From Trypanosoma brucei (Eukaryota): 64,000 bases of DNA. Shown piece after piece: positions 3,901 through 28,851 of this stretch. The position numbers were made by a program, and so were the translations under genes. The stretch's first letter is position 1. Every line of letters begins with the position of its first letter. Under the pieces are notes generated by a model. The model did no database searches. It was not told the origin of the DNA and saw only the letters and a program-made list of their open reading frames with translations. The DNA is taken from positions 1,376,001 through 1,440,000 of the forward strand of contig CP000071.1 of assembly GCA_000002445.1 (NCBI GenBank), given 5' to 3'.

Positions 3901-4122
3901 ATAACACCCCTACCTACAACACATAAAAAAGAGACGAGAAGGATACCACTTAAATCAAGACACTACCTACCATTCAGCAAAAAAAAAATCTCAACACAGC
4001 TCAAGTTTGTGAAGAAAAAAAAACACACTAATCACAACTACAAAATAAAAAAATCTAACGAAACGAAAAGAACAATGTAAATATATAGCCTATCAAAAAA
4101 ATTAAAAAATGGCCAATGTTGA

Positions 4123-5499
4123 TTACACAGCCACATTGTAGATTGAGGCAGCCGTACCAAACACCACAGCGATCACTCCCGATATAAGGAGGAGGTACGT
4201 ACACACGTAATTTACCACACCCACCTGAGAAATGCCCCAGTTACCACAGTACATCCGGTACAATGCGGGAATGCAGAAACCAAGGACACCACCGCAGAAA
4301 CTTCCCAAAAGACCAAATACGGTATTCAGGTCGGGAATGAAGAGGCCAAGGAGCAGAGCGCATAGAGCCATGCAACCGCAAAACAGGCAGTTCTTCCATG
4401 TTTCAAGTGTGTTCAAATCCCACCCAATGATGTAATAGCAGCAATCACGGGCTGGTTGCATGCATAGTGAAAACCCAACACAGATCTTCAGCAACATGCC
4501 CGCAAACGCAATTGCCATCATCACGTCACCCTTCACGTCATAAATCTCAAAGACAGTTTCTACAGATTTGTTCCCAACATCCGTATAACCGAAGAAACCC
4601 GCAATGATGTACACCACACAACACATACTCATGGAATACGTTGTGTGGAGTGTCATGCGCCTTGCGCTCGGTTTGCGCATCTCCGAGTAAATGGAAAAAC
4701 AGTTCATATGGCACAGGTATGAAAACATGAAGATTGACAATCCCTCAATCGCCCTGTTCCCAGATTTAAACATCTCAACATCCTCGGGAAGTTTCCCATC
4801 CTTTAATCCATTTTTCGCGGAGTGCACAACAATGCAGATGACAAAATAAAAAACGAATAGCACAGCGATAGCGGAAGCGTAACGTAGTGAGTTGATTTCC
4901 TTGGGTAACGAGAGTGAAAACATTCCAACAAACCATATGATAGACGTGATCACGCGATTGCCCGTCTTTCCCTGAAAGAACTCCAATGTAGTGCACCCAG
5001 AAGCAACAGAGCCGACAAGGTAACCGGTAGCAATTACATAACTCACGCACGTCCCAAAGGTGAACAACCACGAGACCGATATAGTGAAGTAATCCCACCC
5101 GGGTCCAAAAAGGTTCCTCGAGAGATCCGTGTATGAGTTGTACCCTGTCATTTCTACTGCCTGCATCATCAGCCCAACGGAGTATATAGTCAACACAGTT
5201 ACAGTAATTAGAATGAGGATTGATGGGATCACACCACTCATCTGAAAAGCGATAGCGAGACTTATGACTCCAGCCCCCAATGTGGCACTCCCAAGGTTAA
5301 ACGTTGTCGAAAGGGCACCACCATGGGGAATGATTGCATTTATACATTGCATGAATTTGGAGTCTGTTGTCGGAGTGTCACCATTCTTGTGATGACTTTT
5401 CTCGTCTGCCGCTGACATCGCGCCGTATCCCTCACCCTCATCGGTAACAACCTCCGTGTGGGCCTTTCCAGAGCCTAATGGTTCTGTAGGGCTCAGCAT
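4123..5499 (-). CDS. amino acid transporter / permease (AAT family), array copy 1 (458 aa)
   Basis: A 458-aa multi-pass hydrophobic protein (MLSPTEPLGSGKAHTEV...IYNVAV) with the typical amino acid/auxin permease layout: an N-terminal hydrophilic tail followed by about 11 hydrophobic segments. The start is a true ATG at 5499..5497. The 532-aa track ORF is an upstream read-through and I rejected it. This copy is variant type A (P7, DTP41-43, T123, VGSVASGCTT161-170). Confidence 0.85.
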   Translation of the reverse strand: MLSPTEPLGSGKAHTEVVTDEGEGYGAMSAADEKSHHKNGDTPTTDSKFMQCINAIIPHGGALSTTFNLGSATLGAGVISLAIAFQMSGVIPSILILITVTVLTIYSVGLMMQAVEMTGYNSYTDLSRNLFGPGWDYFTISVSWLFTFGTCVSYVIATGYLVGSVASGCTTLEFFQGKTGNRVITSIIWFVGMFSLSLPKEINSLRYASAIAVLFVFYFVICIVVHSAKNGLKDGKLPEDVEMFKSGNRAIEGLSIFMFSYLCHMNCFSIYSEMRKPSARRMTLHTTYSMSMCCVVYIIAGFFGYTDVGNKSVETVFEIYDVKGDVMMAIAFAGMLLKICVGFSLCMQPARDCCYYIIGWDLNTLETWKNCLFCGCMALCALLLGLFIPDLNTVFGLLGSFCGGVLGFCIPALYRMYCGNWGISQVGVVNYVCTYLLLISGVIAVVFGTAASIYNVAV

Positions 5500-5520
5500 A
5501 TTTAAGAGGTGGGTTTGCTG

Positions 5521-5533
5521 CGTGTGTACGTGT

Positions 5534-5564
<31 letters not shown>

Positions 5565-5570
5565 CTGCTT
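5521..5570. repeat. imperfect (GT)n/(AC)n microsatellite in the 5' UTR of AAT copy 1, expanded relative to the other copies
   Basis: Copy 1 reads gtgtgtacgtgtgtgcgtgtgcgtgtgtgtgtgtgtgtgtgtgc. Copies 2-5 carry a shorter tract at equivalent positions (e.g. 8521-8548). This accounts for the 14-bp longer first unit and for the artefactual ORF extension. Confidence 0.9.
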
Positions 5571-5585
5571 GATAGCTTGATGACT

Positions 5586-5606
5586 GAAAAGGGAAAGAAA
5601 AGAAGC
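5586..5606 (-). promoter_or_regulatory. minus-strand polypyrimidine tract plus AG, the likely spliced-leader acceptor region for AAT copy 1
   Basis: The minus strand reads tttctttcccttttcAG about 85 nt upstream of the ATG at 5499. The same element recurs at 8569-8589, 11552-11572, 14535-14555 and 17517-17537. Confidence 0.55.
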
Positions 5607-7119
5607 GAGCTAATTCGTACAACGGAAGTAAAGACTGCCAAACACATGAATACACAAGTACCAAGAGTTCTTGCACACCCAGACAAGAATCTACTAAACT
5701 CACGGGCATAGCTACTTGCATATCGAAAAAAGCACCACGTTATTTGAAGGGGCATTCAACTCATGGCGACAAAGGAAGACACAAGAAGGTGGTTTCTACG
5801 TGCACCAGACAAGTGTCAAACATGACGCACAAATCGCAGCATCATCAGAGAATGAAACACAACGTGTGTCACACACTGCTTCTGCTTACCCCGACAGAAA
5901 ACAAAAGCGGATAACAAATACAACAAAAAAGGAAGGGAACTAAACAAAAATAAAGGAGCACATTGGAGCGACACGAACGCTGGAGTAACGTATTGTTGGC
6001 TTGGCGATTGATAAAACGCGTAACCAACCCTTCACTTAACCCTGTGGGAACATGTTGTACAAAGGTAGAACATCTTCCAGAGTACGTGTTAGGTTACACG
6101 TGACACCAACTCCATCCAGCATTCAACATTCATTCGTGTGGCAGACAGAAGTTGATACACACATGTTTTCTGTGAGGAATAGAAACATGAGTATATATAG
6201 ATAATGCTTTACGCCACGGCTTCGCAATGGAAAACAAAATAACAAATGAGAAAGCATCCTTCCTTGGCCCTCCCCTCTACCTGCGAACCCAAAAACAGGG
6301 AACTGCCTGATGGAGACATAGCGCAAAGTAAAAAATAAAAATCGTAACAAAAAGGGAGAAACACTCCAGTAGCGGCCCACGAAGATGTAGTGCAACACAA
6401 GGAAGCCACTTTGTGTCACACAATGCTGAGGAAAGAGATATACGCTAAAAGTTCTTTTTAAAAGTTCTAAAAAATAAAATATATAGATATATATATGCCT
6501 CCGCTAAACCAACAAAATAATAATCAAGAATATTTTCCCATTTCGTCTTATTTTTTTTTTTCTGTCTCATAGTTATGCATCACTCACAGCACCTGCCGCC
6601 ACCATCCCTACCGTAAATAAACACGAGGAATTAACCTCTCCGCCACAGGGATTTTGTTAAGAGGAAGGAGCCACTTTACGCAGGTCAGAGAAAACAAGGT
6701 ATGAATCCATAAATACATAACTCTGTATGATAGAGGTGGGCACGCCGTTGCAAAGTGGGCATTAGCTCCTCGTTAACACGGAAACAAACTTATTAAAAAA
6801 GAAAACGTTAACGGTGTAAGCAAATTTTCCCCGCTTACACAAACATATTCACCCAACACTGAACACAGTAAAAAGAAGAAAAGAAGAGGCACCTCAAATA
6901 AATATGCTTATATACCTATACGTAACACCTAACAGTTGCATTTTGTCTACTCTTACACCACACTGAAGGTCATGCAACTGCTTATCATGCATGACACAAA
7001 CACATGGAAAAAACAACACAGTAGAAAAAAATTTAAAAATTACCATCACACGACAGAGTTTGCCTGATTATTGCCGTCACTTGCTGCATGCTCCCACTCT
7101 AACAAAGGGCCAATGTTGA

Positions 7120-8496
7120 TTACACAGCCACATTGTAGATTGAGGCAGCCGTACCAAACACCACAGCGATCACTCCCGATATAAGGAGGAGGTACGTACA
7201 CACGTAATTTACCACACCCACCTGAGAAATGCCCCAGTTACCACAGTACATCCGGTACAATGCGGGAATGCAGAAACCAAGGACACCACCGCAGAAACTT
7301 CCCAAAAGACCAAATACGGTATTCAGGTCGGGAATGAAGAGGCCAAGGAGCAGAGCGCATAGAGCCATGCAACCGCAAAACAGGCAGTTCTTCCATGTTT
7401 CAAGTGTGTTCAAATCCCACCCAATGATGTAATAGCAGCAATCACGGGCTGGTTGCATGCATAGTGAAAACCCAACACAGATCTTCAGCAACATGCCCGC
7501 AAACGCAATTGCCATCATCACGTCACCCTTCACGTCATAAATCTCAAAGACAGTTTCTACGGATTTGTTCCCAACATCCGTATAACCGAAGAAACCCGCA
7601 ATGATGTACACCACACAACACATACTCATGGAATACGTTGTGTGGAGTGTCATGCGCCTTGCGCTCGGTTTGCGCATCTCCGAGTAAATGGAAAAACAGT
7701 TCATATGGCACAGGTATGAAAACATGAAGATTGACAATCCCTCAATCGCCCTGTTCCCAGATTTAAACATCTCAACATCCTCGGGAAGTTTCCCATCCTT
7801 TAATCCATTTTTCGCGGAGTGCACAACAATGCAGATGACAAAATAAAAAACGAATAGCACAGCGATAGCGGAAGCGTAACGTAGTGAGTTGATTTCCTTG
7901 GGTAACGAGAGTGAAAACATTCCAACAAACCATATGATAGACGTGATCACGCGATTGCCCGTCTTTCCCTGAAAGAACTCCAATGCAGAGGACCCAGATA
8001 GCACAGAGTCCACAAGGTAACCGGTAGCAATTACATAACTCACGCACGTCCCAAAGGTGAACAACCACGAGACCGATATAGTGAAGTAATCCCACCCGGG
8101 TCCAAAAAGGTTCCTCGAGAGATCCGCATATGAGTTGTACCCTGTCATTTCTACTGCCTGCATCATCAGCCCAACGGAGTATATAGTCAACACAGTTACA
8201 GTAATTAGAATGAGGATTGATGGAATCACACCACTCATCTGAAAAGCGATAGCGAGACTTATGACTCCAGCCCCCAATGTGGCACTCCCAAGGTTAAACG
8301 TTGTCGAAAGGGCACCACCATGGGGAATGATTGCATTTATACATTGCATGAATTTGGAGTCTGTTGTCAGAGTGTTACCATTCTTGTGATGACTTTTCTC
8401 GTCTGCCGCTGACATCGCGCCGTATCCCTCACCCTCATCGGTAACAACCTCCGTGTGGGCCTTTCCAGAGCCCAATGCTTCTGTAGGGCTCAGCAT
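7120..8496 (-). CDS. amino acid transporter (AAT family), array copy 2 (458 aa)
   Basis: Near-identical to copy 1. The ATG at 8496..8494 was checked. This copy is variant type B (A7, NTL41-43, A123, VDSVLSGSSA161-170). Confidence 0.85.
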   Translation of the reverse strand: MLSPTEALGSGKAHTEVVTDEGEGYGAMSAADEKSHHKNGNTLTTDSKFMQCINAIIPHGGALSTTFNLGSATLGAGVISLAIAFQMSGVIPSILILITVTVLTIYSVGLMMQAVEMTGYNSYADLSRNLFGPGWDYFTISVSWLFTFGTCVSYVIATGYLVDSVLSGSSALEFFQGKTGNRVITSIIWFVGMFSLSLPKEINSLRYASAIAVLFVFYFVICIVVHSAKNGLKDGKLPEDVEMFKSGNRAIEGLSIFMFSYLCHMNCFSIYSEMRKPSARRMTLHTTYSMSMCCVVYIIAGFFGYTDVGNKSVETVFEIYDVKGDVMMAIAFAGMLLKICVGFSLCMQPARDCCYYIIGWDLNTLETWKNCLFCGCMALCALLLGLFIPDLNTVFGLLGSFCGGVLGFCIPALYRMYCGNWGISQVGVVNYVCTYLLLISGVIAVVFGTAASIYNVAV

Positions 8497-10102
8497 ATTT
8501 AAGAGGTGGGTTTGCTGCGTGTGTACGTTTGTGTGTGTGTGTGTGTGCTGCTTGATAGCTTGATGACTGAAAAGGGAAAGAAAAGAAGCGAGCTAATTCG
8601 TACAACGGAAGTAAAGACTGCCAAACACATGAATACACAAGTACCAAGAGTTCTTGCACACCCAGACAAGAATCTACTAAACTCACGGGCATAGCTACTT
8701 GCATATCGAAAAAAGCACCACGTTATTTGAAGGGGCATTCAACTCATGGCGACAAAGGAAGACACAAGAAGGTGGTTTCTACGTGCACCAGACAAGTGTC
8801 AAACATGACGCACAAATCGCAGCATCATCAGAGAATGAAACACAACGTGTGTCACACACTGCTTCTGCTTACCCCGACAGAAAACAAAAGCGGATAACAA
8901 ATACAACAAAAAAGGAAGGGAACTAAACAAAAATAAAGGAGCACATTGGAGCGACACGAACGCTGGAGTAACGTATTGTTGGCTTGGCGATTGATAAAAC
9001 GCGTAACCAACCCTTCACTTAACCCTGTGGGAACATGTTGTACAAAGGTAGAACATCTTCCAGAGTACGTGTTAGGTTACACGTGACACCAACTCCATCC
9101 AGCAATCAACATTCATTCGTGTGGCAGAGAGAAGTTGATACACACATGTTTTCTGTGAGGAATAGAAACATGAGTATATATAGATAATGCTTTACGCCAC
9201 GGCTTCGCAATGGAAAACAAAATAACAAATGAGAAAGCATCCTTCCTTGGCCCTCCCCTCTACCTGCGAACCCAAAAACAGGGAACTGCCTGATGGAGAC
9301 ATAGCGCAAAGTAAAAAATAAAAATCGTAACAGAAAGGGAGAAACACTCCAGTAGCGGCCCACGAAGATGTAGTGCAACACAAGGAAGCCACTTTGTGTC
9401 ACACAATGCTGAGGAAAGAGATATACGCTAAAAGTTCTTTTTAAAAGTTCTAAAAAATAAAATATATAGATATATATATGCCTCCGCTAAACCAACAAAA
9501 TAATAATAAAGAATATTTTCCCATTTCGTCTTATTTTTTTTTTTCTGTCTCATAGTTATGCATCACTCACAGCACCTGCCGCCACCATCCCTACCGTAAA
9601 TAAACACGAGGAATTAACCTCTCCGCCACAGGGATTTTGTTAAGAGGAAGGAGCCACTTTACGCAGGTCAGAGAAAACAAGGTATGAATCCATAAATACA
9701 TAACTCTGTATGATAGAGGTGGGCACGCCGTTGCAAAGTGGGCATTAGCTCCTCGTTAACACGGAAACAAACTTATTAAAAAAGAAAACGTTAACGGTGT
9801 AAGCAAATTTTCCCCGCTTACACAAACATATTCACCCAACACTGAACACAGTAAAAAGAAGAAAAGAAGAGGCACCTCAAATAAATATGCTTATATACCT
9901 ATACGTAACACCTAACAGTTGCATTTTGTCTACTCTTACACCACACTAAAGGTCATGCAACTGCTTATCATGCATGACACAAACACATGGAAAAAACAAC
10001 ACAGTAGAAAAAAATTTAAAAATTACCATCACACGACAGAGTTTGCCTGATTATTGCCGTCACTTGCTGCATGCTCCCACTCTAACAAAGGGCCAATGTT
10101 GA

Positions 10103-11479
10103 TTACACAGCCACATTGTAGATTGAGGCAGCCGTACCAAACACCACAGCGATCACTCCCGATATAAGGAGGAGGTACGTACACACGTAATTTACCACAC
10201 CCACCTGAGAAATGCCCCAGTTACCACAGTACATCCGGTACAATGCGGGAATGCAGAAACCAAGGACACCACCGCAGAAACTTCCCAAAAGACCAAATAC
10301 GGTATTCAGGTCGGGAATGAAGAGGCCAAGGAGCAGAGCGCATAGAGCCATGCTACCGCAAAACAGGCAGTTCTTCCATGTTTCAAGTGTGTTCAAATCC
10401 CACCCAATGATGTAATAGCAGCAATCACGGGCTGGTTGCATGCATAGTGAAAACCCAACACAGATCTTCAGCAACATGCCCGCAAACGCAATTGCCATCA
10501 TCACGTCACCCTTCACGTCATAAATCTCAAAGACAGTTTCTACAGATTTGTTCCCAACATCCGTATAACCGAAGAAACCCGCAATGATGTACACCACACA
10601 ACACATACTCATGGAATACGTTGTGTGGAGTGTCATGCGCCTTGCGCTCGGTTTGCGCATCTCCGAGTAAATGGAAAAACAGTTCATATGGCACAGGTAT
10701 GAAAACATGAAGATTGACAATCCCTCAATCGCCCTGTTCCCAGATTTAAACATCTCAACATCCTCGGGAAGTTTCCCATCCTTTAATCCATTTTTCGCGG
10801 AGTGCACAACAATGCAGATGACAAAATAAAAAACGAATAGCACAGCGATAGCGGAAGCGTAACGTAGTGAGTTGATTTCCTTGGGTAACGAGAGTGAAAA
10901 CATTCCAACAAACCATATGATAGACGTGATCACGCGATTGCCCGTCTTTCCCTGAAAGAACTCCAATGCAGAGGACCCAGATAGCACAGAGTCCACAAGG
11001 TAACCGGTAGCAATTACATAACTCACGCACGTCCCAAAGGTGAACAACCACGAGACCGATATAGTGAAGTAATCCCACCCGGGTCCAAAAAGGTTCCTCG
11101 AGAGATCCGCATATGAGTTGTACCCTGTCATTTCTACTGCCTGCATCATCAGCCCAACGGAGTATATAGTCAACACAGTTACAGTAATTAGAATGAGGAT
11201 TGATGGGATCACACCACTCATCTGAAAAGCGATAGCGAGACTTATGACTCCAGCCCCCAATGTGGCACTCCCAAGGTTAAACGTTGTCGAAAGGGCACCA
11301 CCATGGGGAATGATTGCATTTATACATTGCATGAATTTGGAGTCTGTTGTCGGAGTGTCACCATTCTTGTGATGACTTTTCTCGTCTGCCGCTGACATCG
11401 CGCCGTATCCCTCACCCTCATCGGTAACAACCTCCGTGTGGGCCTTTCCAGAGCCTAATGGTTCTGTAGGGCTCAGCAT
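10103..11479 (-). CDS. amino acid transporter (AAT family), array copy 3 (458 aa, chimeric variant)
   Basis: The N-terminus matches type A (P7, DTP) but the middle matches type B (A123, VDSVLSGSSA). It also carries a unique CGS(MAL) residue where the others have CGC. Confidence 0.85.
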   Translation of the reverse strand: MLSPTEPLGSGKAHTEVVTDEGEGYGAMSAADEKSHHKNGDTPTTDSKFMQCINAIIPHGGALSTTFNLGSATLGAGVISLAIAFQMSGVIPSILILITVTVLTIYSVGLMMQAVEMTGYNSYADLSRNLFGPGWDYFTISVSWLFTFGTCVSYVIATGYLVDSVLSGSSALEFFQGKTGNRVITSIIWFVGMFSLSLPKEINSLRYASAIAVLFVFYFVICIVVHSAKNGLKDGKLPEDVEMFKSGNRAIEGLSIFMFSYLCHMNCFSIYSEMRKPSARRMTLHTTYSMSMCCVVYIIAGFFGYTDVGNKSVETVFEIYDVKGDVMMAIAFAGMLLKICVGFSLCMQPARDCCYYIIGWDLNTLETWKNCLFCGSMALCALLLGLFIPDLNTVFGLLGSFCGGVLGFCIPALYRMYCGNWGISQVGVVNYVCTYLLLISGVIAVVFGTAASIYNVAV

Positions 11480-13085
11480 ATTTAAGAGGTGGGTTTGCTG
11501 CGTGTGTACGTTTGTGTGTGTGTGTGTGTGCTGCTTGATAGCTTGATGACTGAAAAGGGAAAGAAAAGAAGCGAGCTAATTCGTACAACGGAAGTAAAGA
11601 CTGCCAAACACATGAATACACAAGTACCAAGAGTTCTTGCACACCCAGACAAGAATCTACTAAACTCACGGGCATAGCTACTTGCATATCGAAAAAAGCA
11701 CCACGTTATTTGAAGGGGCATTCAACTCATGGCGACAAAGGAAGACACAAGAAGGTGGTTTCTACGTGCACCAGACAAGTGTCAAACATGACGCACAAAT
11801 CGCAGCATCATCAGAGAATGAAACACAACGTGTGTCACACACTGCTTCTGCTTACCCCGACAGAAAACAAAAGCGGATAACAAATACAACAAAAAAGGAA
11901 GGGAACTAAACAAAAATAAAGGAGCACATTGGAGCGACACGAACGCTGGAGTAACGTATTGTTGGCTTGGCGATTGATAAAACGCGTAACCAACCCTTCA
12001 CTTAACCCTGTGGGAACATGTTGTACAAAGGTAGAACATCTTCCAGAGTACGTGTTAGGTTACACGTGACACCAACTCCATCCAGCATTCAACATTCATT
12101 CGTGTGGCAGACAGAAGTTGATACACACATGTTTTCTGTGAGGAATAGAAACATGAGTATATATAGATAATGCTTTACGCCACGGCTTCGCAATGGAAAA
12201 CAAAATAACAAATGAGAAAGCATCCTTCCTTGGCCCTCCCCTCTACCTGCGAACCCAAAAACAGGGAACTGCCTGATGGAGACATAGCGCAAAGTAAAAA
12301 ATAAAAATCGTAACAAAAAGGGAGAAACACTCCAGTAGCGGCCCACGAAGATGTAGTGCAACACAAGGAAGCCACTTTGTGTCACACAATGCTGAGGAAA
12401 GAGATATACGCTAAAAGTTCTTTTTAAAAGTTCTAAAAAATAAAATATATAGATATATATATGCCTCCGCTAAACCAACAAAATAATAATCAAGAATATT
12501 TTCCCATTTCGTCTTATTTTTTTTTTTCTGTCTCATAGTTATGCATCACTCACAGCACCTGCCGCCACCATCCCTACCGTAAATAAACACGAGGAATTAA
12601 CCTCTCCGCCACAGGGATTTTGTTAAGAGGAAGGAGCCACTTTACGCAGGTCAGAGAAAACAAGGTATGAATCCATAAATACATAACTCTGTATGATAGA
12701 GGTGGGCACGCCGTTGCAAAGTGGGCATTAGCTCCTCGTTAACACGGAAACAAACTTATTAAAAAAGAAAACGTTAACGGTGTAAGCAAATTTTCCCCGC
12801 TTACACAAACATATTCACCCAACACTGAACACAGTAAAAAGAAGAAAAGAAGAGGCACCTCAAATAAATATGCTTATATACCTATACGTAACACCTAACA
12901 GTTGCATTTTGTCTACTCTTACACCACACTGAAGGTCATGCAACTGCTTATCATGCATGACACAAACACATGGAAAAAACAACACAGTAGAAAAAAATTT
13001 AAAAATTACCATCACACGACAGAGTTTGCCTGATTATTGCCGTCACTTGCTGCATGCTCCCACTCTAACAAAGGGCCAATGTTGA

Positions 13086-14462
13086 TTACACAGCCACATT
13101 GTAGATTGAGGCAGCCGTACCAAACACCACAGCGATCACTCCCGATATAAGGAGGAGGTACGTACACACGTAATTTACCACACCCACCTGAGAAATGCCC
13201 CAGTTACCACAGTACATCCGGTACAATGCGGGAATGCAGAAACCAAGGACACCACCGCAGAAACTTCCCAAAAGACCAAATACGGTATTCAGGTCGGGAA
13301 TGAAGAGGCCAAGGAGCAGAGCGCATAGAGCCATGCAACCGCAAAACAGGCAGTTCTTCCATGTTTCAAGTGTGTTCAAATCCCACCCAATGATGTAATA
13401 GCAGCAATCACGGGCTGGTTGCATGCATAGTGAAAACCCAACACAGATCTTCAGCAACATGCCCGCAAACGCAATTGCCATCATCACGTCACCCTTCACG
13501 TCATAAATCTCAAAGACAGTTTCTACGGATTTGTTCCCAACATCCGTATAACCGAAGAAACCCGCAATGATGTACACCACACAACACATACTCATGGAAT
13601 ACGTTGTGTGGAGTGTCATGCGCCTTGCGCTCGGTTTGCGCATCTCCGAGTAAATGGAAAAACAGTTCATATGGCACAGGTATGAAAACATGAAGATTGA
13701 CAATCCCTCAATCGCCCTGTTCCCAGATTTAAACATCTCAACATCCTCGGGAAGTTTCCCATCCTTTAATCCATTTTTCGCGGAGTGCACAACAATGCAG
13801 ATGACAAAATAAAAAACGAATAGCACAGCGATAGCGGAAGCGTAACGTAGTGAGTTGATTTCCTTGGGTAACGAGAGTGAAAACATTCCAACAAACCATA
13901 TGATAGACGTGATCACGCGATTGCCCGTCTTTCCCTGAAAGAACTCCAATGCAGAGGACCCAGATAGCACAGAGTCCACAAGGTAACCGGTAGCAATTAC
14001 ATAACTCACGCACGTCCCAAAGGTGAACAACCACGAGACCGATATAGTGAAGTAATCCCACCCGGGTCCAAAAAGGTTCCTCGAGAGATCCGCATATGAG
14101 TTGTACCCTGTCATTTCTACTGCCTGCATCATCAGCCCAACGGAGTATATAGTCAACACAGTTACAGTAATTAGAATGAGGATTGATGGAATCACACCAC
14201 TCATCTGAAAAGCGATAGCGAGACTTATGACTCCAGCCCCCAATGTGGCACTCCCAAGGTTAAACGTTGTCGAAAGGGCACCACCATGGGGAATGATTGC
14301 ATTTATACATTGCATGAATTTGGAGTCTGTTGTCAGAGTGTTACCATTCTTGTGATGACTTTTCTCGTCTGCCGCTGACATCGCGCCGTATCCCTCACCC
14401 TCATCGGTAACAACCTCCGTGTGGGCCTTTCCAGAGCCCAATGCTTCTGTAGGGCTCAGCAT
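13086..14462 (-). CDS. amino acid transporter (AAT family), array copy 4 (458 aa)
   Basis: The protein is identical to copy 2 (type B). Confidence 0.85.
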   Translation of the reverse strand: MLSPTEALGSGKAHTEVVTDEGEGYGAMSAADEKSHHKNGNTLTTDSKFMQCINAIIPHGGALSTTFNLGSATLGAGVISLAIAFQMSGVIPSILILITVTVLTIYSVGLMMQAVEMTGYNSYADLSRNLFGPGWDYFTISVSWLFTFGTCVSYVIATGYLVDSVLSGSSALEFFQGKTGNRVITSIIWFVGMFSLSLPKEINSLRYASAIAVLFVFYFVICIVVHSAKNGLKDGKLPEDVEMFKSGNRAIEGLSIFMFSYLCHMNCFSIYSEMRKPSARRMTLHTTYSMSMCCVVYIIAGFFGYTDVGNKSVETVFEIYDVKGDVMMAIAFAGMLLKICVGFSLCMQPARDCCYYIIGWDLNTLETWKNCLFCGCMALCALLLGLFIPDLNTVFGLLGSFCGGVLGFCIPALYRMYCGNWGISQVGVVNYVCTYLLLISGVIAVVFGTAASIYNVAV

Positions 14463-16067
14463 ATTTAAGAGGTGGGTTTGCTGCGTGTGTACGTTTGTGT
14501 GTGTGTGTGTGTGCTGCTTGATAGCTTGATGACTGAAAAGGGAAAGAAAAGAAGCGAGCTAATTCGTACAACGGAAGTAAAGACTGCCAAACACATGAAT
14601 ACACAAGTACCAAGAGTTCTTGCACACCCAGACAAGAATCTACTAAACTCACGGGCATAGCTACTTGCATATCGAAAAAAGCACCACGTTATTTGAAGGG
14701 GCATTCAACTCATGGCGACAAAGGAAGACACAAGAAGGTGGTTTCTACGTGCACCAGACAAGTGTCAAACATGACGCACAAATCGCAGCATCATCAGAGA
14801 ATGAAACACAACGTGTGTCACACACTGCTTCTGCTTACCCCGACAGAAAACAAAAGCGGATAACAAATACAACAAAAAAGGAAGGGAACTAAACAAAAAT
14901 AAAGGAGCACATTGGAGCGACACGAACGCTGGAGTAACGTATTGTTGGCTTGGCGATTGATAAAACGCGTAACCAACCCTTCACTTAACCCTGTGGGAAC
15001 ATGTTGTACAAAGGTAGAACATCTTCCAGAGTACGTGTTAGGTTACACGTGACACCAACTCCATCCAGCAATCAACATTCATTCGTGTGGCAGACAGAAG
15101 TTGATACACACATGTTTTCTGTGAGGAATAGAAACATGAGTATATATAGATAATGCTTTACGCCACGGCTTCGCAATGGAAAACAAAATAACAAATGAGA
15201 AAGCATCCTTCCTTGGCCCTCCCCTCTACCTGCGAACCCAAAAACAGGGAACTGCCTGATGGAGACATAGCGCAAAGTAAAAAATAAAAATCGTAGCAAA
15301 AAGGGAGAAACACTCCAGTAGCGGCCCACGAAGATGTAGTGCAACACAAGGAAGCCACTTTGTGTCACACAATGCTGAGGAAAGAGATATACGCTAAAAG
15401 TTCTTTTTAAAAGTTCTAAAAAATAAAATATATAGATATATATATGCCTCCGCTAAACCAACAAAATAATAATCAAGAATATTTTCCCATTTCGTCTTAT
15501 TTTTTTTTTCTGTCTCATAGTTATGCATCACTCACAGCACCTGCCGCCACCATCCCTACCGTAAATAAACACGAGGAATTAACCTCTCCGCCACAGGGAT
15601 TTTGTTAAGAGGAAGGAGCCACTTTACGCAGGTCAGAGAAAACAAGGTATGAATCCATAAATACATAACTCTGTATGATAGAGGTGGGCACGCCGTTGCA
15701 AAGTGGGCATTAGCTCCTCGTTAACACGGAAACAAACTTATTAAAAAAGAAAACGTTAACGGTGTAAGCAAATTTTCCCCGCTTACACAAACATATTCAC
15801 CCAACACTGAACACAGTAAAAAGAAGAAAAGAAGAGGCACCTCAAATAAATATGCTTATATACCTATACGTAACACCTAACAGTTGCATTTTGTCTACTC
15901 TTACACCACACTAAAGGTCATGCAACTGCTTATCATGCATGACACAAACACATGGAAAAAACAACACAGTAGAAAAAAATTTAAAAATTACCATCACACG
16001 ACAGAGTTTGCCTGATTATTGCCGTCACTTGCTGCATGCTCCCACTCTAACAAAGGGCCAATGTTGA

Positions 16068-17444
16068 TTACACAGCCACATTGTAGATTGAGGCAGCCGT
16101 ACCAAACACCACAGCGATCACTCCCGATATAAGGAGGAGGTACGTACACACGTAATTTACCACACCCACCTGAGAAATGCCCCAGTTACCACAGTACATC
16201 CGGTACAATGCGGGAATGCAGAAACCAAGGACACCACCGCAGAAACTTCCCAAAAGACCAAATACGGTATTCAGGTCGGGAATGAAGAGGCCAAGGAGCA
16301 GAGCGCATAGAGCCATGCAACCGCAAAACAGGCAGTTCTTCCATGTTTCAAGTGTGTTCAAATCCCACCCAATGATGTAATAGCAGCAATCACGGGCTGG
16401 TTGCATGCATAGTGAAAACCCAACACAGATCTTCAGCAACATGCCCGCAAACGCAATTGCCATCATCACGTCACCCTTCACGTCATAAATCTCAAAGACA
16501 GTTTCTACAGATTTGTTCCCAACATCCGTATAACCGAAGAAACCCGCAATGATGTACACCACACAACACATACTCATGGAATACGTTGTGTGGAGTGTCA
16601 TGCGCCTTGCGCTCGGTTTGCGCATCTCCGAGTAAATGGAAAAACAGTTCATATGGCACAGGTATGAAAACATGAAGATTGACAATCCCTCAATCGCCCT
16701 GTTCCCAGATTTAAACATCTCAACATCCTCGGGAAGTTTCCCATCCTTTAATCCATTTTTCGCGGAGTGCACAACAATGCAGATGACAAAATAAAAAACG
16801 AATAGCACAGCGATAGCGGAAGCGTAACGTAGTGAGTTGATTTCCTTGGGTAACGAGAGTGAAAACATTCCAACAAACCATATGATAGACGTGATCACGC
16901 GATTGCCCGTCTTTCCCTGAAAGAACTCCAATGTAGTGCACCCAGAAGCAACAGAGCCGACAAGGTAACCGGTAGCAATTACATAACTCACGCACGTCCC
17001 AAAGGTGAACAACCACGAGACCGATATAGTGAAGTAATCCCACCCGGGTCCAAAAAGGTTCCTCGAGAGATCCGTGTATGAGTTGTACCCTGTCATTTCT
17101 ACTGCCTGCATCATCAGCCCAACGGAGTATATAGTCAACACAGTTACAGTAATTAGAATGAGGATTGATGGGATCACACCACTCATCTGAAAAGCGATAG
17201 CGAGACTTATGACTCCAGCCCCCAATGTGGCACTCCCAAGGTTAAACGTTGTCGAAAGGGCACCACCATGGGGAATGATTGCATTTATACATTGCATGAA
17301 TTTGGAGTCTGTTGTCGGAGTGTCACCATTCTTGTGATGACTTTTCTCGTCTGCCGCTGACATCGCGCCGTATCCCTCACCCTCATCGGTAACAACCTCC
17401 GTGTGGGCCTTTCCAGAGCCTAATGGTTCTGTAGGGCTCAGCAT
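16068..17444 (-). CDS. amino acid transporter (AAT family), array copy 5 (458 aa)
   Basis: The protein is identical to copy 1 (type A). Confidence 0.85.
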   Translation of the reverse strand: MLSPTEPLGSGKAHTEVVTDEGEGYGAMSAADEKSHHKNGDTPTTDSKFMQCINAIIPHGGALSTTFNLGSATLGAGVISLAIAFQMSGVIPSILILITVTVLTIYSVGLMMQAVEMTGYNSYTDLSRNLFGPGWDYFTISVSWLFTFGTCVSYVIATGYLVGSVASGCTTLEFFQGKTGNRVITSIIWFVGMFSLSLPKEINSLRYASAIAVLFVFYFVICIVVHSAKNGLKDGKLPEDVEMFKSGNRAIEGLSIFMFSYLCHMNCFSIYSEMRKPSARRMTLHTTYSMSMCCVVYIIAGFFGYTDVGNKSVETVFEIYDVKGDVMMAIAFAGMLLKICVGFSLCMQPARDCCYYIIGWDLNTLETWKNCLFCGCMALCALLLGLFIPDLNTVFGLLGSFCGGVLGFCIPALYRMYCGNWGISQVGVVNYVCTYLLLISGVIAVVFGTAASIYNVAV

Positions 17445-19049
17445 ATTTAAGAGGTGGGTTTGCTGCGTGTGTACGTTTGTGTGTGTGTGTGTGTGCTGCT
17501 TGATAGCTTGATGACTGAAAAGGGAAAGAAAAGAAGCGAGCTAATTCGTACAACGGAAGTAAAGACTGCCAAACACATGAATACACAAGTACCAAGAGTT
17601 CTTGCACACCCAGACAAGAATCTACTAAACTCACGGGCATAGCTACTTGCATATCGAAAAAAGCACCACGTTATTTGAAGGGGCATTCAACTCATGGCGA
17701 CAAAGGAAGACACAAGAAGGTGGTTTCTACGTGCACCAGACAAGTGTCAAACATGACGCACAAATCGCAGCATCATCAGAGAATGAAACACAACGTGTGT
17801 CACACACTGCTTCTGCTTACCCCGACAGAAAACAAAAGCGGATAACAAATACAACAAAAAAGGAAGGGAACTAAACAAAAATAAAGGAGCACATTGGAGC
17901 GACACGAACGCTGGAGTAACGTATTGTTGGCTTGGCGATTGATAAAACGCGTAACCAACCCTTCACTTAACCCTGTGGGAACATGTTGTACAAAGGTAGA
18001 ACATCTTCCAGAGTACGTGTTAGGTTACACGTGACACCAACTCCATCCAGCAATCAACATTCATTCGTGTGGCAGACAGAAGTTGATACACACATGTTTT
18101 CTGTGAGGAATAGAAACATGAGTATATATAGATAATGCTTTACGCCACGGCTTCGCAATGGAAAACAAAATAACAAATGAGAAAGCATCCTTCCTTGGCC
18201 CTCCCCTCTACCTGCGAACCCAAAAACAGGGAACTGCCTGATGGAGACATAGCGCAAAGTAAAAAATAAAAATCGTAGCAAAAAGGGAGAAACACTCCAG
18301 TAGCGGCCCACGAAGATGTAGTGCAACACAAGGAAGCCACTTTGTGTCACACAATGCTGAGGAAAGAGATATACGCTAAAAGTTCTTTTTAAAAGTTCTA
18401 AAAAATAAAATATATAGATATATATATGCCTCCGCTAAACCAACAAAATAATAATCAAGAATATTTTCCCATTTCGTCTTATTTTTTTTTTCTGTCTCAT
18501 AGTTATGCATCACTCACAGCACCTGCCGCCACCATCCCTACCGTAAATAAACACGAGGAATTAACCTCTCCGCCACAGGGATTTTGTTAAGAGGGAGGAG
18601 CCACTTTACGCAGGTCAGAGAAAACAAGGTATGAATCCATAAATACATAACTCTGTATGATAGAGGTGGGCACGCCGTTGCAAAGTGGGCATTAGCTCCT
18701 CGTTAACACGGAAACAAACTTATCAAAAAAGAAAACGTTAACGGTGTAAGCAAATTTTCCCCGCTTACACAAACATATTCACCCAACACTGAACACAGTA
18801 AAAAGAAGAAAAGAAGAGGCACCTCAAATAAATATGCTTATATACCTATACGTAACACCTAACAGTTGCATTTTGTCTACTCTTACACCACACTAAAGGT
18901 CATGCAACTGCTTATCATGCATGACACAAACACATGGAAAAAATAACACAGTAGAAAAAAATTTAAAAATTACCATCACACGACAGAGTTTGCCTGATTA
19001 TTGCCGTCACTTGCTGCATGCTCCCACTCTAACAAAGGGCCAATGTTGA

Positions 19050-19166
19050 TTACACAGCCACATTGTAGATTGAGGCAGCCGTACCAAACACCACAGCGAT
19101 CACTCCCGATATAAGGAGGAGGTACGTGCACACGTAATTTACCACACCCACCTGAGAAATGCCCCA
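19050..19166 (-). pseudogene. truncated 3' fragment (last ~38 codons plus stop) of a sixth AAT copy at the upstream edge of the array
   Basis: The sequence 19041-19166 matches the 3' end of the intact copies (ccaatgttgattacacagccacattgtagattgaggcagcc...gaaatgcccca). Homology stops abruptly at about 19166, where T-rich unrelated sequence begins. Confidence 0.8.
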
Positions 19167-19199
19167 TTTTTATATATACGTTGTGGTGTCCAGATGAAT

Positions 19200-19520
19200 T
19201 GCTTTTCCTTCGATATATTTGTTGTTAGTACATTTTTAAATAGCTGTATTGTTGTTTCTGGTTTATTCTTTTTCTTCATTTTACTTTTTTTCTGTTCATT
19301 GTCTTTTTTTGTTTGTTGTTACGTGGATGTTTAATAGTCGATATGAGTTCGTATTCGTTAAATATATTTTTAGTGTTTCACTGCTGATTATTTTTATCTT
19401 TTTGTGTGTTGTTTTGTTTTCTGTGTATGGGTTTTTATTTACACATGCCGTTCATGGTGTTTTTTCCCGGTCCTTCTACCTATTTTTGGGACGAACACGA
19501 ATGTGTTAGGTGCTTTGAAG
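19200..19520. repeat. T-rich (plus strand) low-complexity tract flanking the upstream edge of the AAT array
   Basis: About 320 bp that is more than 60% T on the plus strand, A-rich on the transcribed strand, with no credible ORF. Confidence 0.7.
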
Positions 19521-20416
19521 TGACGCCTCGGTTACTGATTTCCTCGTACATGCGTTGTAGAAGGGGTGTTGCTCGTTTTTCGTTTCGCTGGTTGTGAAGA
19601 AGTTGAGTTGGTGTAGTGAGGCATCACCGCGCTCTTGTGGTACGATCCTCAAATGAGAATACGTGCACACCGTTAATTCTGTTTCAAATTCTTCTGATCA
19701 AGTCTCATTGTTATTTGTCATACCGAACGCCGGGTCACGTATAATTCTCGTGATTCATTACAAACAGTCTCGTCATATAACGAGGTCATAGTGGATATCA
19801 GCACGATTCTGTAAACAGATGTGGCACCTATCATAAGGGAGAATGTTACCGCCACAACTGAATTGTGTGGCGACATTTTCGATGGGAATCGGTAACGTCG
19901 TTCAGGCACCTTGCTGGGTGCGATACAGTAACGGTAGGAAGAATCTAGACTACCGTCACGTCCTGTATAGTGTCACCCGAAGTGACAATAAAAAGAAAGA
20001 CAACAGAGAATTTCGTCACCACCAAAATTTCCAGTGGAGCGAAAACGAAGCACACCACTCGTTAGCCGGAATAAAGAGACCCCGAAAGACAAGTCACTCT
20101 ACTCTAATAGGTGCCGCAGTCCGCGAAGCAAGGCTTCCTTGCATAAGCATTTTATGTATCCCTACCTTCATCATCACTTTTAATTTCCAAATAAATGCGA
20201 TAATTTTTATTTTCTTGTTTCAAAAAAGAGGAAGCATGTGTGGAAGTGGGAAAGTGCAGGTAGACTATTAGCGCTACACAATCGTGAGAGGAAGAGACGC
20301 AGGCAGTGTGTAAGAGCGGGGCCACACAGTGTTATAGGTGTCACAGCATTTAAGTATGGGCACGCATATGCCAGCGTGTGCCTGTATATAGTAGTGCATG
20401 TGAGGCACTGGTTTTC

Positions 20417-21214
20417 CTACCTTTGTCCTCCTTTTAAATACCATTCCAAGACTGAGCTAGCTGCTTTCGGAAGAGATCGACCCCACCGTACAGGCAACCC
20501 CATCAAGAAGCAAGAAAGGACTGCGGAATCTCTTATAGCAACAATAGTTCCATTTTCACAATGTACCAACTCACAAAAACCATCGGAAAACCGGAATTCT
20601 ATGAATGCTCCTTCTACGCGGAAGGAGGATAAAAAGCACAAACGTGACTGATCATTACAAGCTGATGTCTCATGGAAACTAACAGCATTTACCCCCATCA
20701 CTTCCGCAACTTCGCCAGCCCATGGAAACCTACGCTCTATGTCAGATCTCGACAACACGATCGATTTTTCAATGCAAGAATTCGAATCAATAAAGTAACT
20801 TGGAAGATCGTCACGAGTAGATATAAGAAGGTTGGCGCCATCGATGAAATGGCACCCAAGAATGTCTCGATGGATCTGGTAGCAAAGTGCAATTGCTCTA
20901 GAGCTCTCACTCTCACTCCAGTAGACAGTAGGCCTCATTACCTTGCTCACCAGTGCAGTGAAAGGAGTAAGCCCCATTTTACCGCCACAGCGCAGACACA
21001 CATCTTTTCCGCTCTTTGAGCAATGGAAAAAGGGACCCTCGGAGTACTCCATAAAACAAATATCACAAACGTAGCCATTTTGGTATTCGGGCTCATGATC
21101 TATTGGAAGCACTTCAAAATACCTAAAAGTGCACTTATTTTTGTCCTTCATCGTCCCTCCAATAGTCAAAAAAGAAGAAGTAATGACATAAAGTGTAAAT
21201 AATACGCACCTCAT
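20417..21214 (-). CDS. hypothetical protein (265 aa) with a CxxC-x19-CxxC zinc-ribbon motif
   Basis: The ORF starts at an ATG (21214..21212) and has non-repetitive, protein-like composition. It contains CDICFMEYSEGPFFHCSKSGKDVCLRCGG. An alternative start at MKDKNK (21151) is possible. I did not recognise a family. Confidence 0.5.
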   Translation of the reverse strand: MRCVLFTLYVITSSFLTIGGTMKDKNKCTFRYFEVLPIDHEPEYQNGYVCDICFMEYSEGPFFHCSKSGKDVCLRCGGKMGLTPFTALVSKVMRPTVYWSESESSRAIALCYQIHRDILGCHFIDGANLLISTRDDLPSYFIDSNSCIEKSIVLSRSDIERRFPWAGEVAEVMGVNAVSFHETSACNDQSRLCFLSSFRVEGAFIEFRFSDGFCELVHCENGTIVAIRDSAVLSCFLMGLPVRWGRSLPKAASSVLEWYLKGGQR

Positions 21215-23399
21215 TCAGTGGTTAGTGGTGGCAGTTCAAACTCAGACAATGAAAATACACGTGCCCGTGGTAGAGAAATTTCTGAGACTGTATACATGCA
21301 TACAGAAATGAATAGACATGTCTATGTCCATGCAACCCCAGTAGTTCGCGACATTGAACACACAAGCACACTGAGTTTCATAACCAATGCTTCCCTGTCG
21401 TTGCGATAAGGGCTTCAATTCACTCTCGTAAGCGAAGCCCCTGTGTCAGACGCGCGGTAAACAGCCACAGGTATGAAGAGACTTTCTTCTCCCTAACACA
21501 ACGCGGGTAACCAACCTCAACTTTATTCTTTAAAAGCTAAATCACTTGTACACCGCAAGGGAAAACAACTCGCCACCAACATGAATACAGCTTTGTGACA
21601 TCAAGGGGTCGGAAAGCTGAAATACTTGGCCCACATTAAAGTTAAACGATCAACATACGTACGAACAACCATACATATACACTTACATGTGCAGAAAGCT
21701 GAGAAAGACGTAGACTCTTCAGATATGGAAATACTGAAGACGACGTAAGAGCGACAACAACGGATAAAGAAAGATCCCTTCTTCACAACCGCAACAGTGG
21801 CAACCAAACGGTTCGTTAAATTTTTATTCGTGATCGCAGAGTGAACAAACCATGGTTGCCCACTAACAAATATAGCAGTATCAATAACAACAACAGTCCT
21901 GACAGCCGACGCTGATACTTCCACATCCATCACAACACTAAGCACACTGGACGTACCCTAACAGTCCCTACGGGCACGTTGTCATAAAACGAGGGCCCCG
22001 GTGCTACGAGCAATAGAATACGCAAAGGTCAAAACATCAGACCCATTTCCAGCCTTTGTTTATCTGTACCTTCTGATTTTATTTATTAAGAGTGATTTTA
22101 TTGCAAAAAAAACAGGAGAAGGGGGTCGTGCTTGGGTGTCAGTGCTATGCAATGTCAAATACCTACCATGGAATCGACGTTTTCACGTGCTTCCATGTTC
22201 ATTTGTACATGCCCCTTCAATGGGGGAAAGTGGACATTCTCTCATCTCTCCTCCCCTGAGCAGGTTAAATAAAATTAAAAGCCGCTCCACGTCAATTGGG
22301 GGGGGGCACTTGGTTAAAACAAACAACTATAACCGGCTGCCTGGAGAGGAGGTTCAGCTGTGTGCGCAGCGTGGCGCGAACCATCAACTGAGTCCCTCCC
22401 CTAGGGACACGAAAAATGCAAAAGAAAACACTTAGTGGTTGCCCTTAACTCGCCTCAGAATGGTGGCAGGCTTGTCATGAAGAGTCATTCCACAGAGACT
22501 CTTTGACAGAGGGGATACGTAAGTCAATAGTGGCAAAGACATATTTGAACTAAGATGTAGTAATGTTGATTATCTTGCGTTTGTAGAGGAGTGACTGTCA
22601 AGCTTAGCGGTAAAGTGCATGAGTAGAGAGGAACATTCACAACTATTCCATTCACACTCCACCACGTGGTTCGAGATGGAGCGGTAAGTCACTGCATATC
22701 CCCCTCCTTTCTGTGGGATATACTGACGAAGAGGAACCTAACGATCGGTGACAATGGAAAAAAACAAAGGAAAGGCACACAAACTTTTCCTTTTCATTGA
22801 CAATCACCCCTTCATTCTTACTAATACCTCATTCGAGGAAGAGGACGAAACTGATCAATTTTTTTGTTTGCTAAAAGCGAAAAAAAAAACATTGTTCTTT
22901 TTTTTTTGAGTGTTTTTGCACAGCTCCTCGAGGTGCCTTGAGCGCATATACTTCAGCACAAACACTTAATTGCAAAATGAAAAAGTTAAACCTTGGACTC
23001 TGCCAAACGCGTGTGTGCATATAATTACAAAAATAACGCACGCAAAACACTTTGTTTTCAATGTAGTGGCGGGGTGCGCAGTCAATCCGGGGTGATGCGT
23101 ACGTTGCGACCGCGTTGCGCAGCATAAGTGGGGGGAGCACTCGCAGCACTCGAGGCTGTCTTATCGCACTAATAGTCACCGTGTTTCGTAGTGGGGGGAA
23201 CCAGAAAGCAACATGTCTAGCACCGGACTTCGTACTGAACACTGCGGCCTCAACAACGAAGGGGGGAATGATAATAATACATAAAAGAAGTAATAAGGAA
23301 ACTCCGCCGCCCCTACACACGAAAAGAGAATTTATTTATTTATTTTTATGCGCACCGGAGGTACTCCCACACCCAGATCAACGACGACGGCGAGACTCG

Positions 23400-26300: not shown

Positions 26301-27300
26301 TAAAACACTTTGCGGAGAAACCGGGGATTAACGGTCCCCTAGCCACTGGTGAACGAGAACCCAAAAAGAAAAAAGATGAAATGATGCAGCATACCACACG
26401 AGGAAAGTGGAAGTGCGGACGAGCCCCCAAGTTCGGCAATGAACTGATTGCGTTTTCCCCTTCATCAAGCAGGAGAAATCCATCACCATCGAGTTAGCTC
26501 CCGTGTAAAGGAGGAACGCAGCGATGCATGGCAGTTAGCCGGACGCCGCAAATGGAAGACAGTGCACCCTGAGGGGCACAGAGATAAATGGGCATTGGAT
26601 ACTCCCAACCCCTAACAGTAGACACTGCCGGGCCCCCCTCCTCTTTCTCGTGCGCGCGCACCGTCGCACATGTGGCAGCACTAACGATTCAGCGGAGCAC
26701 GCAATTCCTGGGGGGCTCAACGCCCCCCCCCTCGCAATCACACACACACGCACACCACCGAAAAAAACACTCCCACGTCCGGAGTGAAATCGCCTGTTGG
26801 GCCTCCGCCACACTCCCGAGCCATTCCAACCTGCAGCGGCTTCGAGACCCGACAACGGCAGTAAATCGTCATAGCAAGCGCTGCAAGGGTGAAATGGTCG
26901 TCAGGAGGATGCCCTCTGACGGCGCCGGCAGCCACGCCACAGTGTCAGAGAACCGTGCTCCGTCCAAAAGGAAGTTGAGAGGCGGTTTCCTGTTCGCGTC
27001 ATCGAAATGGAGAGAGCACTTGACATGTAACAACCAAAACGGCGATACGGAGGATCACTGGGGCTTGGGGGAGGGGGAAGTGCGCTTCCACAGCTGGGAA
27101 CGCATACTCGCCCTCAGTGTTTGCCCACTGTTCTTACTGCCAGATGGTCGAGACAGTGGGGTGACAGCACTATGCGGCCATACTGAAGGGCATGAGGGGA
27201 AGGAAAGAACTGCTGTTGGGATTATGCTGAGAACAGTGGTAAAAATGGGAGATGAGAGCGAGTTAACGAAAGGAGGGAGCCGTGGCAACTAACACAGTGC
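23400..27300. other. roughly 4-kb GC-rich island without a credible ORF, possibly a degenerate retroelement or other non-coding insert, nature unresolved
   Basis: There is a sharp rise in G+C with C-runs (25410-25421, 26680-26700). Only short overlapping ORFs occur in all six frames, with stop-free stretches in shifting plus-strand frames, and there is no intact protein. The flanks are ordinary coding or AT-rich DNA. Confidence 0.4.
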
Positions 27301-27584
27301 AGGGGAAAACGCATATCACCAGCAATCCCTTCCTTAGCTTTTGCGGGAGCATTTCATACATGCACGTAACGCATGCTTACACAGCGGTTACGGAGCAACA
27401 CCCACATCTTGACGAAGCAACGACAGAAAGAAACTGATCTCACATTCTCCACAAATTACTACCAACTGGGGTTCAAGCGCGCAACAACCCCCTAAAGTTG
27501 GTTTGTATTGCAAATGTCACGCGCGAAAGAAAGAAACAGCGAGAAAACGAGATGGCAATCCGCCAAGCAGCATGCCTGCGCCGC

Positions 27585-28232: not shown

Positions 28233-28851
28233 TACTGCAGTAGAAGAAATATTAAATGCCTTTACGAACCCTTTGGAGTTACTAAACACTGGTACGCATG
28301 TGAGTGATGGACAGAGAGCCCCCCACCACAGATTAGAATGAAGGAAGGACAAAAACAGAAGGGCATGAATATATGATGTTCTCCCCCCATCCCCCTGCGC
28401 GTCGGAACCCGGGTGTTTAAATGAAAGAACGGACGGGGCAAACGAGTATCTCCTCTTCCCCCACCCTTGACCTCAGCAGGAACAAAAACAAAAAATAAGA
28501 ACAAAATGGAAACACCTGATTCAGTAAGAAGGAGCTCTGCGCTCTTCAATTCTGACGAAACATTTTCAAGAAACACCGCGTCAGGAATATTACATCGGTG
28601 CACGAAGTTTCATCATATGATGAAACGCGAGGCAAACAAGAGAGAAGGTAATAAGCACCCATTCCGCCACTTTCAATAATAATAACATGACATGAAAGCA
28701 TGGCCATTTACATCTAAAAAAATTAAAAAGGGAGAAATCAAAGGAAAAGATGAGACGGTGAAAAGAGGCGGGGGCGTGGACAGTCACCGGCCACCTCCTA
28801 TTCACTAAACCTAAAACCTCTCATACAACAATGGCGGTCGAAACACTGAGC

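Follow-up and report, generated by a model that had tools for sequence, protein, structure and literature searches.

Recombination and variant haplotypes in the five-copy TbAAT5 arginine transporter array of Trypanosoma brucei brucei TREU927

The tandem array of amino acid transporter genes described here lies in a stretch of Trypanosoma brucei DNA of 64,000 nucleotides (nt), the whole of which was analysed and is hereafter called the window. The array corresponds to TbAAT5 (Tb927.8.4700-4750) of Trypanosoma brucei brucei TREU927, i.e. the five-copy arginine transporter array already published for chromosome 8. In a protein comparison, the isoforms encoded in the window match the TREU927 proteins AAZ13235 to AAZ13239 letter for letter: AAZ13235 and AAZ13239 (Tb927.8.4700 and Tb927.8.4740) are the proteins of copies 1 and 5 (copy 1 being read from its MLSPTE start), AAZ13236 and AAZ13238 (Tb927.8.4710 and Tb927.8.4730) are those of copies 2 and 4, and AAZ13237 (Tb927.8.4720) is that of copy 3. 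The Pfam domain Aa_trans (PF01490) is matched over residues 60-453 with 175.8 bits against a gathering cut-off of 25.6 bits (E = 1.5e-51), and the nearest protein relatives are from Trypanosoma, at 98% for T. b. gambiense and ~70% for the T. cruzi arginine permease. On these matches the TREU927 products are predicted to be arginine transporters of the AAAP family with 11 helices. TbAAT5, a high-affinity arginine transporter of the plasma membrane, is essential to bloodstream forms (Mathieu et al. 2017, PMC5207785), and the 4720-type protein of strain 427 takes up L-arginine selectively with a Km of 3.6 uM (PMC5207785). The TbAAT5 locus of that study (Mathieu et al. 2017, PMC5207785), with its five full genes and a 120-nt pseudogene, Tb927.8.4750, is the same as the one in the window and shows no sequence difference from it; its S1 Table gives the same nucleotide variants, gene by gene, for TREU927, but the positional pattern of the variants, their polarity and the two-unit identical tract described below are not discussed there. 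The locus is also the AAT5 of Jackson 2007 (PMC1810246, PMC1855330). Every large open reading frame (ORF) of the window lies on the minus strand, and we read these ORFs as one polycistronic unit. As will be argued in the following, ordinary tandem-array recombination very probably explains the variants among the copies.

The features of the array are collected in Table 1. Self-blastn of one unit shows that the four full units share 99.3-100% identity, and the ORF list and translation give five complete ORFs of 458 amino acids (aa), ~2,983 bp apart. Copies 1 and 5 encode identical proteins and are identical in all 1,377 nt of the coding sequence (CDS), and the same is true of copies 2 and 4. 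Copy 3 has a P7/DTP N-terminus, an A/VDSVLSGSSA core and a private T-to-A change at nt 1126 (C376S, window position 10354). An earlier reading of the letters alone (the sequence-only reading) had described five 458-aa copies, the first equal to the fifth, the second equal to the fourth, and the third intermediate with a private substitution, all of which is borne out by translation. Its type A corresponds approximately to what we call type X, defined by the core block, its type B to our type Y, defined by the N-terminal haplotype, and its middle copy is our type Z. The marker residues P7 and 41-43 had been numbered correctly, but those of the core were one too low, the threonine being T124 (A124T) and the block running from V162 to T171; the true core changes are A124T, D163G, L166A, S169C, S170T and A171T. 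The ORF of copy 1 extends to position 5721 (532 aa), because the longer GT microsatellite upstream of this copy contains no stop codon. This longer microsatellite, without an upstream stop, accounts for the 532-aa annotation of Tb927.8.4700 and for the T. b. gambiense gene models of 524-538 aa; published RNA sequencing supports the 458-aa ORF. In T. congolense IL3000 a 3' CDS fragment of 232 nt (8195-8426 of its locus) is found upstream of AAT5 and is 99.6% identical to the gene of the same genome. The truncated stub at the upstream array edge would appear either to predate the split between T. brucei and T. congolense or to have recurred.

Table 1. Features of the TbAAT5 array in the window and of its products. 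Nucleotide coordinates are window positions.
Feature	Position	Strand	Description	Basis
Whole TbAAT5 array	4103..19166	-	four full ~2,983-bp units and a truncated unit at each end, all direct; 98.6-100% identity	self-blastn
Truncated low-end unit	4103-6619			self-blastn
High-end stub	18550-19166		617 bp	self-blastn
Copy 1, Tb927.8.4700	4123..5499	-	type X (derived core block); most downstream gene of the array	translation
Copy 2, Tb927.8.4710	7120..8496	-	type Y (derived N-terminal haplotype: A7, N41, L43 and three synonymous sites)	protein match, codon classification
Copy 3, Tb927.8.4720	10103..11479	-	type Z (common, ancestral-like haplotype) with private C376S	protein match, polarity comparison
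Copy 4, Tb927.8.4730	13086..14462	-	type Y, CDS same as copy 2	protein match
Copy 5, Tb927.8.4740	16068..17444	-	type X, CDS same as copy 1; first full gene	protein match
Pseudogene Tb927.8.4750	19050..19169	-	120-nt 3' CDS fragment at the upstream array edge	blastn of CDS nt 1258-1377
GT microsatellite upstream of copy 1	5522..5564	.	14 bp longer than in the other units	Tandem Repeats Finder (TRF), alignment columns 1907-1920
Perfect direct repeat, first arm	5547..9128	.	3,582 bp; from the spacer upstream of copy 1 through the whole of copy 2 into the next spacer	exact-match scan
Perfect direct repeat, second arm	11513..15094	.	3,582 bp; from the spacer upstream of copy 3 through the whole of copy 4 into the next spacer	exact-match scan
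Type-X divergent island, copy 5	16934..17076	-	CDS nt 369-511; 11 nt differences, six residue changes	unit alignment
Type-X divergent island, copy 1	4989..5131	-		unit alignment
Residues 163 and 166	last turn of transmembrane helix 3 (TM3; 135-166)			AlphaFold2 model
Residues 169-171	loop before a short helix (173-176) and TM4 (178-196)			AlphaFold2 model
A124T	start of the short helix between TM2 and TM3		presumably cytosolic	AlphaFold2 model
P7A, D41N, P43L	disordered N-terminal tail		predicted local distance difference test score (pLDDT) below 50	AlphaFold2 model
C376S	TM9			AlphaFold2 model

In the unit alignment, a first class of variants separates copies 1, 3 and 5 from copies 2 and 4 and comprises six CDS sites (nt 19, 24, 121, 128, 273 and 936) and one site in the 3' untranslated region. 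A second class separates copies 1 and 5 from copies 2, 3 and 4 and comprises eleven sites at nt 369-370 and 486-511, confined to 143 bp, i.e. the type-X island. Of the 15 differences that separate unit 5 from unit 3, eleven fall inside this 143-bp island (binomial ~7e-11, corrected for window choice), in which the divergence over nt 369-511 amounts to 7.7%, and nt 495-498 of the island hold a compensated frameshift (+T/-A) that turns GTG CTA into GTT GCT. The codon changes are six non-synonymous and three synonymous in the X island, and three of each kind in the Y haplotype; as neither shows an excess of replacements, positive selection is not claimed. Outside the CDS the copies are less uniform: units 1 and 5, with no CDS difference, differ at seven non-CDS sites, and units 2 and 4, likewise with none in the CDS, differ at five, all inside 406 bp of spacer, whereas the non-CDS sequences of units 4 and 5 are identical. 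When the window was searched with the X and Z blocks (30 nt, at most six substitutions), only array copies were matched, and no ectopic donor was found within it.

The arrays used for comparison were those of T. b. gambiense DAL972 (a pseudogene and three copies), T. equiperdum IVM-t1 (a pseudogene and four copies) and T. equiperdum OVI (one copy, with Ns in the locus), and outgroup proteins as well as T. congolense DNA were also used to determine polarity. Taken alone, the CDS variants of TREU927 fit the tree ((1,5),3,(2,4)) and show only three of the four gametes, so that no crossover is needed for the middle copy. The sequence-only reading had seen in the coding mosaic the signature of gene conversion or unequal crossover; exchange is indeed supported, but by the CDS and spacers together, the CDS mosaic itself being compatible with one tree. 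When polarised spacer sites are considered, all four gametes are seen between the core block and spacer site 782 or 1007, and between the N-terminal block and spacer site 782. Furthermore, the longest exact repeat of the array is the 3,582-bp direct repeat, the arms of which lie at a two-unit offset (5,966 bp). Since this repeat exceeds one unit, a spacer, the Y gene and a further spacer were copied together, by a single event, in two-unit register, which accounts for the identity of copies 2 and 4; at spacer sites 155 and 1007, derived alleles are common to the spacers downstream of both Y genes. The exact repeat of the X copies has 1,421 bp (4111-5531 = 16056-17476), their spacers differ, and the island is the sole derived sequence that they share. 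Alignment of all the copies at the nucleotide level, which had been proposed along with the sequence-only reading, thus maps the tract boundaries, i.e. those of the 143-bp island and of the 3,582-bp and 1,421-bp repeats.

The array, with its units 98.6-100% identical, evolves in concert. CDS nt 6, 96, 183 and 618 are uniform within each genome, and at these sites TREU927 differs from T. b. gambiense and T. equiperdum IVM-t1; the homogenised nt 183 and 618 flank the island within 435 bp. Partial tracts of the block in T. equiperdum also count as evidence of recombination. In an earlier survey (Jackson et al. 2010, PMC2854126, Table 2), the entry "Amino acid transporter Tb927.8.4740" has a pairwise homoplasy index (PHI) test with p<0.001, one breakpoint by the likelihood ratio test (LRT) and seven GARD breakpoints, and the same table gives five T. 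b. brucei copies and six T. b. gambiense copies. In Jackson 2007, on the other hand, AAT5 yielded no conversion event by GENECONV or SISCAN; such a null result agrees with the tree compatibility of the CDS found here, the signal needing the spacers or other subspecies. Other recombinant T. brucei arrays (Jackson 2007, PMC1810246, PMC1855330; Jackson et al. 2010, PMC2854126) are likewise direct tandem arrays that evolve in concert, with short conversion tracts.

At all type-separating sites copy 3 has the state of all T. b. gambiense copies and of most T. equiperdum copies, and T. congolense agrees at most of these sites; copy 3 (4720) departs from the other T. brucei-group sequences mainly at its private nt 1126. 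The alleles of the type-B N-terminal haplotype are derived and, except that at nt 936, private to the TREU927 copies 4710 and 4730. From these comparisons the middle copy is of the common type and need not be the chimera that the sequence-only reading took it for, and recombination is unnecessary to explain it, since it carries the common T. brucei-group haplotype where the types differ. We regard it, tentatively, as possible that the middle copy is nevertheless a true X/Y recombinant, formed when a crossover fell between the two blocks (N-terminal and core) or when a type-B patch was placed in a type-A copy. An exchange with an offset of two units between the X end copies would give an X copy in the middle, and a later patch of 143-662 bp from a neighbour would give the sequence observed; the spacer upstream of copy 3 equals that of copy 1, as this model predicts, and short partial tracts do occur in the block in T. 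equiperdum. The agreement of copy 3 with the other genomes speaks against a recombinant origin, as do the three gametes out of four at the CDS sites, by which exchange is not required, and the lack of any AAT5 event by GENECONV or SISCAN in Jackson 2007.

The type-X block is not confined to TREU927. In T. equiperdum IVM-t1 the block of nt 486-511 is complete in the last copy, reduced to nt 486/488 in the third and to nt 488 in the first. No gene is called for the first array copy of that genome (7027-8401 of its locus), from which single nucleotides are missing at two places, near CDS nt 486 and 730; this copy is either a real pseudogene or a product of long-read indel errors. In strain 427 the X block is reported in genes 4700 and 4740 (S1 Table), and an X-type ORF has been cloned from this strain by polymerase chain reaction (PCR) (PMC5207785). 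When compared with T. congolense, type Z agrees at codons 123, 124, 169 and 171, and type X at codons 165 and 170. As the agreement is split between the two types, both lineages have changed and the block represents an old divergence, and the X island would, as judged from this comparison, be older than the T. brucei lineage split. A single burst of mutations in X as its sole cause is rejected, because T. congolense shares the states of codons 165 and 170 with X.

It might be argued that the copy number, the order of the types or the assignment of the variants is wrong in the Sanger-era TREU927 chromosome 8, either through repeats that were collapsed or arbitrarily ordered, or through the alleles of two homologues having been merged into one array. 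The exact repeats of 3,582 and 1,421 bp are indeed longer than a Sanger read, and the assembled copies number five in TREU927, four in T. equiperdum IVM-t1, three in DAL972 and one, with Ns, in T. equiperdum OVI, among which collapse and real variation are inseparable. Jackson et al. warned that assembled repeat number is possibly arbitrary and confounded with allelic variation, and Table 2 of PMC2854126 has six T. b. gambiense copies, against three and a pseudogene on the DAL972 chromosome 8 record; the extra copies may be on unplaced contigs or may have been counted differently. We nonetheless consider an assembly artefact unlikely. The X-type ORF cloned from strain 427 by PCR (PMC5207785) shows that variants are real, and the separately assembled T. 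equiperdum array has the X-type block again in its last copy; these two observations exclude sequencing errors, which the sequence-only reading had named as a possible refutation, for the type-A block. Moreover, each unit has distinguishing spacer variants that could anchor the assembly, and the table for strain 427 places X in the same two genes, though that assembly was probably reference-guided.

The sequence-only reading had also emphasised a mirror-symmetric order along the array, A-B-chimera-B-A. The symmetry holds for the coding sequences only and is broken by the variants of the spacers: over copies 1-5 these have the patterns TATAA, AAAGG and TTT--, unit 2 has three private sites, and no spacer pattern is mirror-symmetric. 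Since two of the 30 possible arrangements of types X, X, Y, Y and Z are palindromic, the palindromic order is not beyond chance. A genuine palindrome is rejected, for all the units have the same orientation and the spacers lack symmetry. Neither the mirror symmetry nor the chimera holds up as a special feature of the array.

The position of the variants in the protein was examined with an AlphaFold2 model built from an alignment of 94 sequences (pLDDT 86.5, predicted TM-score 0.85). The model has 11 long transmembrane helices in a LeuT/APC-type fold, with TM3 at residues 135-166 and TM4 at 178-196, and its top Foldseek matches are LAX3, AUX1 and SLC38A9, the TM-score to AUX1/LAX3 being ~0.7. 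The T. cruzi transporters TcAAAP411/TcCAT1 as well as AUX1/LAX3 and SLC38A9 have the same Aa_trans domain and the same 11-helix fold of LeuT/APC type, although the identity of TbAAT5 to the solved structures is only 13-16%. To our knowledge there is no structure of a trypanosomatid member, and the role of the TM3-TM4 loop is a presumed one. The placement on a structural model that had been suggested for the block puts it at the outer end of TM3 and in the TM3-TM4 loop. These outer-face assignments, and the cytosolic one of A124T, would follow from a cytosolic N-terminus and the order of the helices in the model. The columns of the block are variable across the family, except that of L166, which is hydrophobic.

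This position is of interest with respect to substrate choice, as the sequence-only reading had suggested that the 10-residue block could alter specificity. In yeast, the 4740-type ORF allows growth on arginine and histidine and not on lysine, whereas the 4720-type ORF allows growth on all three (PMC5207785); lysine competes with arginine only at a 100-fold excess (PMC5207785). The published difference in growth on lysine lends support to the suggestion, but the cloned type-X ORF of strain 427 also has D32E, and the difference is thus not assignable to the island alone. The island may modulate substrate selectivity, namely the acceptance of lysine. It has to be asked, then, whether the copies have diversified in function, in the sense that selection shields the X island from homogenisation, so that two isoforms of the transporter are encoded in the array. 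TREU927, strain 427 and T. equiperdum all retain the island, whereas nt 183 and 618 on either side of it have been homogenised in each genome; the island lies, in the model, at the extracellular end of TM3 and in the TM3-TM4 loop; it changes L166, a residue kept hydrophobic in the family, to alanine; and the 4740-type, unlike the 4720-type, gives no growth on lysine in yeast. We find such diversification rather doubtful, however, as the 6:3 ratio of non-synonymous to synonymous changes shows no replacement excess, most columns of the block are among the more variable ones of the family, the need for a 100-fold excess of lysine makes its physiological relevance doubtful, the three assembled T. 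b. gambiense copies are without the island, and D32E accompanies it in the cloned ORF. It is still less probable that the island marks a distinct isoform, for arginine and histidine and not lysine, which selection has held at the array ends across the T. brucei lineages, with the end copies as protected reservoirs because they are least involved in unequal exchange.

The reading we prefer is that the array owes the near identity of its units to unequal crossover and gene conversion, and that the pattern observed would consist of two separate derived haplotypes, X and Y, on a common background. The order of events, like any selection on the island, is one we infer, setting out from the locus identity, tract boundaries, polarity and structural location demonstrated above. 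The starting array would have had copies with the X island at both ends and copies of the common type inside. An unequal exchange between sister chromatids or homologues with an offset of two units, or a long conversion tract, would then have duplicated the Y gene and its downstream spacer, and short patch conversions may subsequently have reshuffled the spacers, such that units 4 and 5 became equal and unit 2 kept some ancestral spacer alleles. Type X would be nothing but the old 143-bp island with its surroundings homogenised, and the middle copy may never have had the island or may have lost it to a patch of 143-662 bp from a neighbour. The mirror image would then be a by-product of two events in an odd-numbered array, with no structural basis, and the presence of the island at both ends may reflect positional protection of the terminal copies, selection or chance.

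Several observations weigh against this reconstruction. More than one order of events fits the data, so that the reconstruction is not unique. A simple exchange from X-Y-X to X-Y-X-Y-X predicts that units 2 and 4 are equal throughout, and they differ at the five sites within 406 bp of spacer, for which further patch conversions are needed. The type-A core is not found in the three assembled copies of T. b. gambiense DAL972, and the gene models of strain 427 are probably not independent of the 927 reference. The Y haplotype, seen only in TREU927, could be allelic and have been folded into the array in the assembly of a diploid genome from Sanger reads. Finally, with six non-synonymous and three synonymous changes, and hence no excess, the codon counts give no signal of selection on the island.

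In the remainder of the window, a 4,151-aa ORF on the minus strand (28852-41307) combines an N-terminal CLU (clustered mitochondria) domain with 22 DUF7623 repeats. One 23-bp array is found by TRF in two places of this ORF that are 1,701 bp apart (33161-33212 and 34862-34913), and its recurrence is suggestive of a large duplication inside the gene. Between the TbAAT5 array and this next large gene, ~9 kb (19170-28800) hold short ORFs only, with a GC content of up to 0.56 at 24-26 kb; one of them, a 265-aa ORF on the minus strand (20417-21214), has no Pfam match, and gene calls for it exist in both T. b. gambiense and T. equiperdum. No RNA genes were found when the whole window, 19170-28800 included, was scanned with Rfam and for tRNAs.

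The locus, the variants of its copies, its essential role in arginine transport and the recombinant nature of the array had all been published, and the importance of the present analysis beyond this literature is small. What it adds is the polarity of the variants, the 3.58-kb tract spanning two units, the persistence of the island in the end copies and the mapping of the island to the outer TM3 and the TM3-TM4 loop. These additions could guide a swap experiment on the selectivity of the transporter for lysine and arginine, or tests of the array assemblies with long reads.

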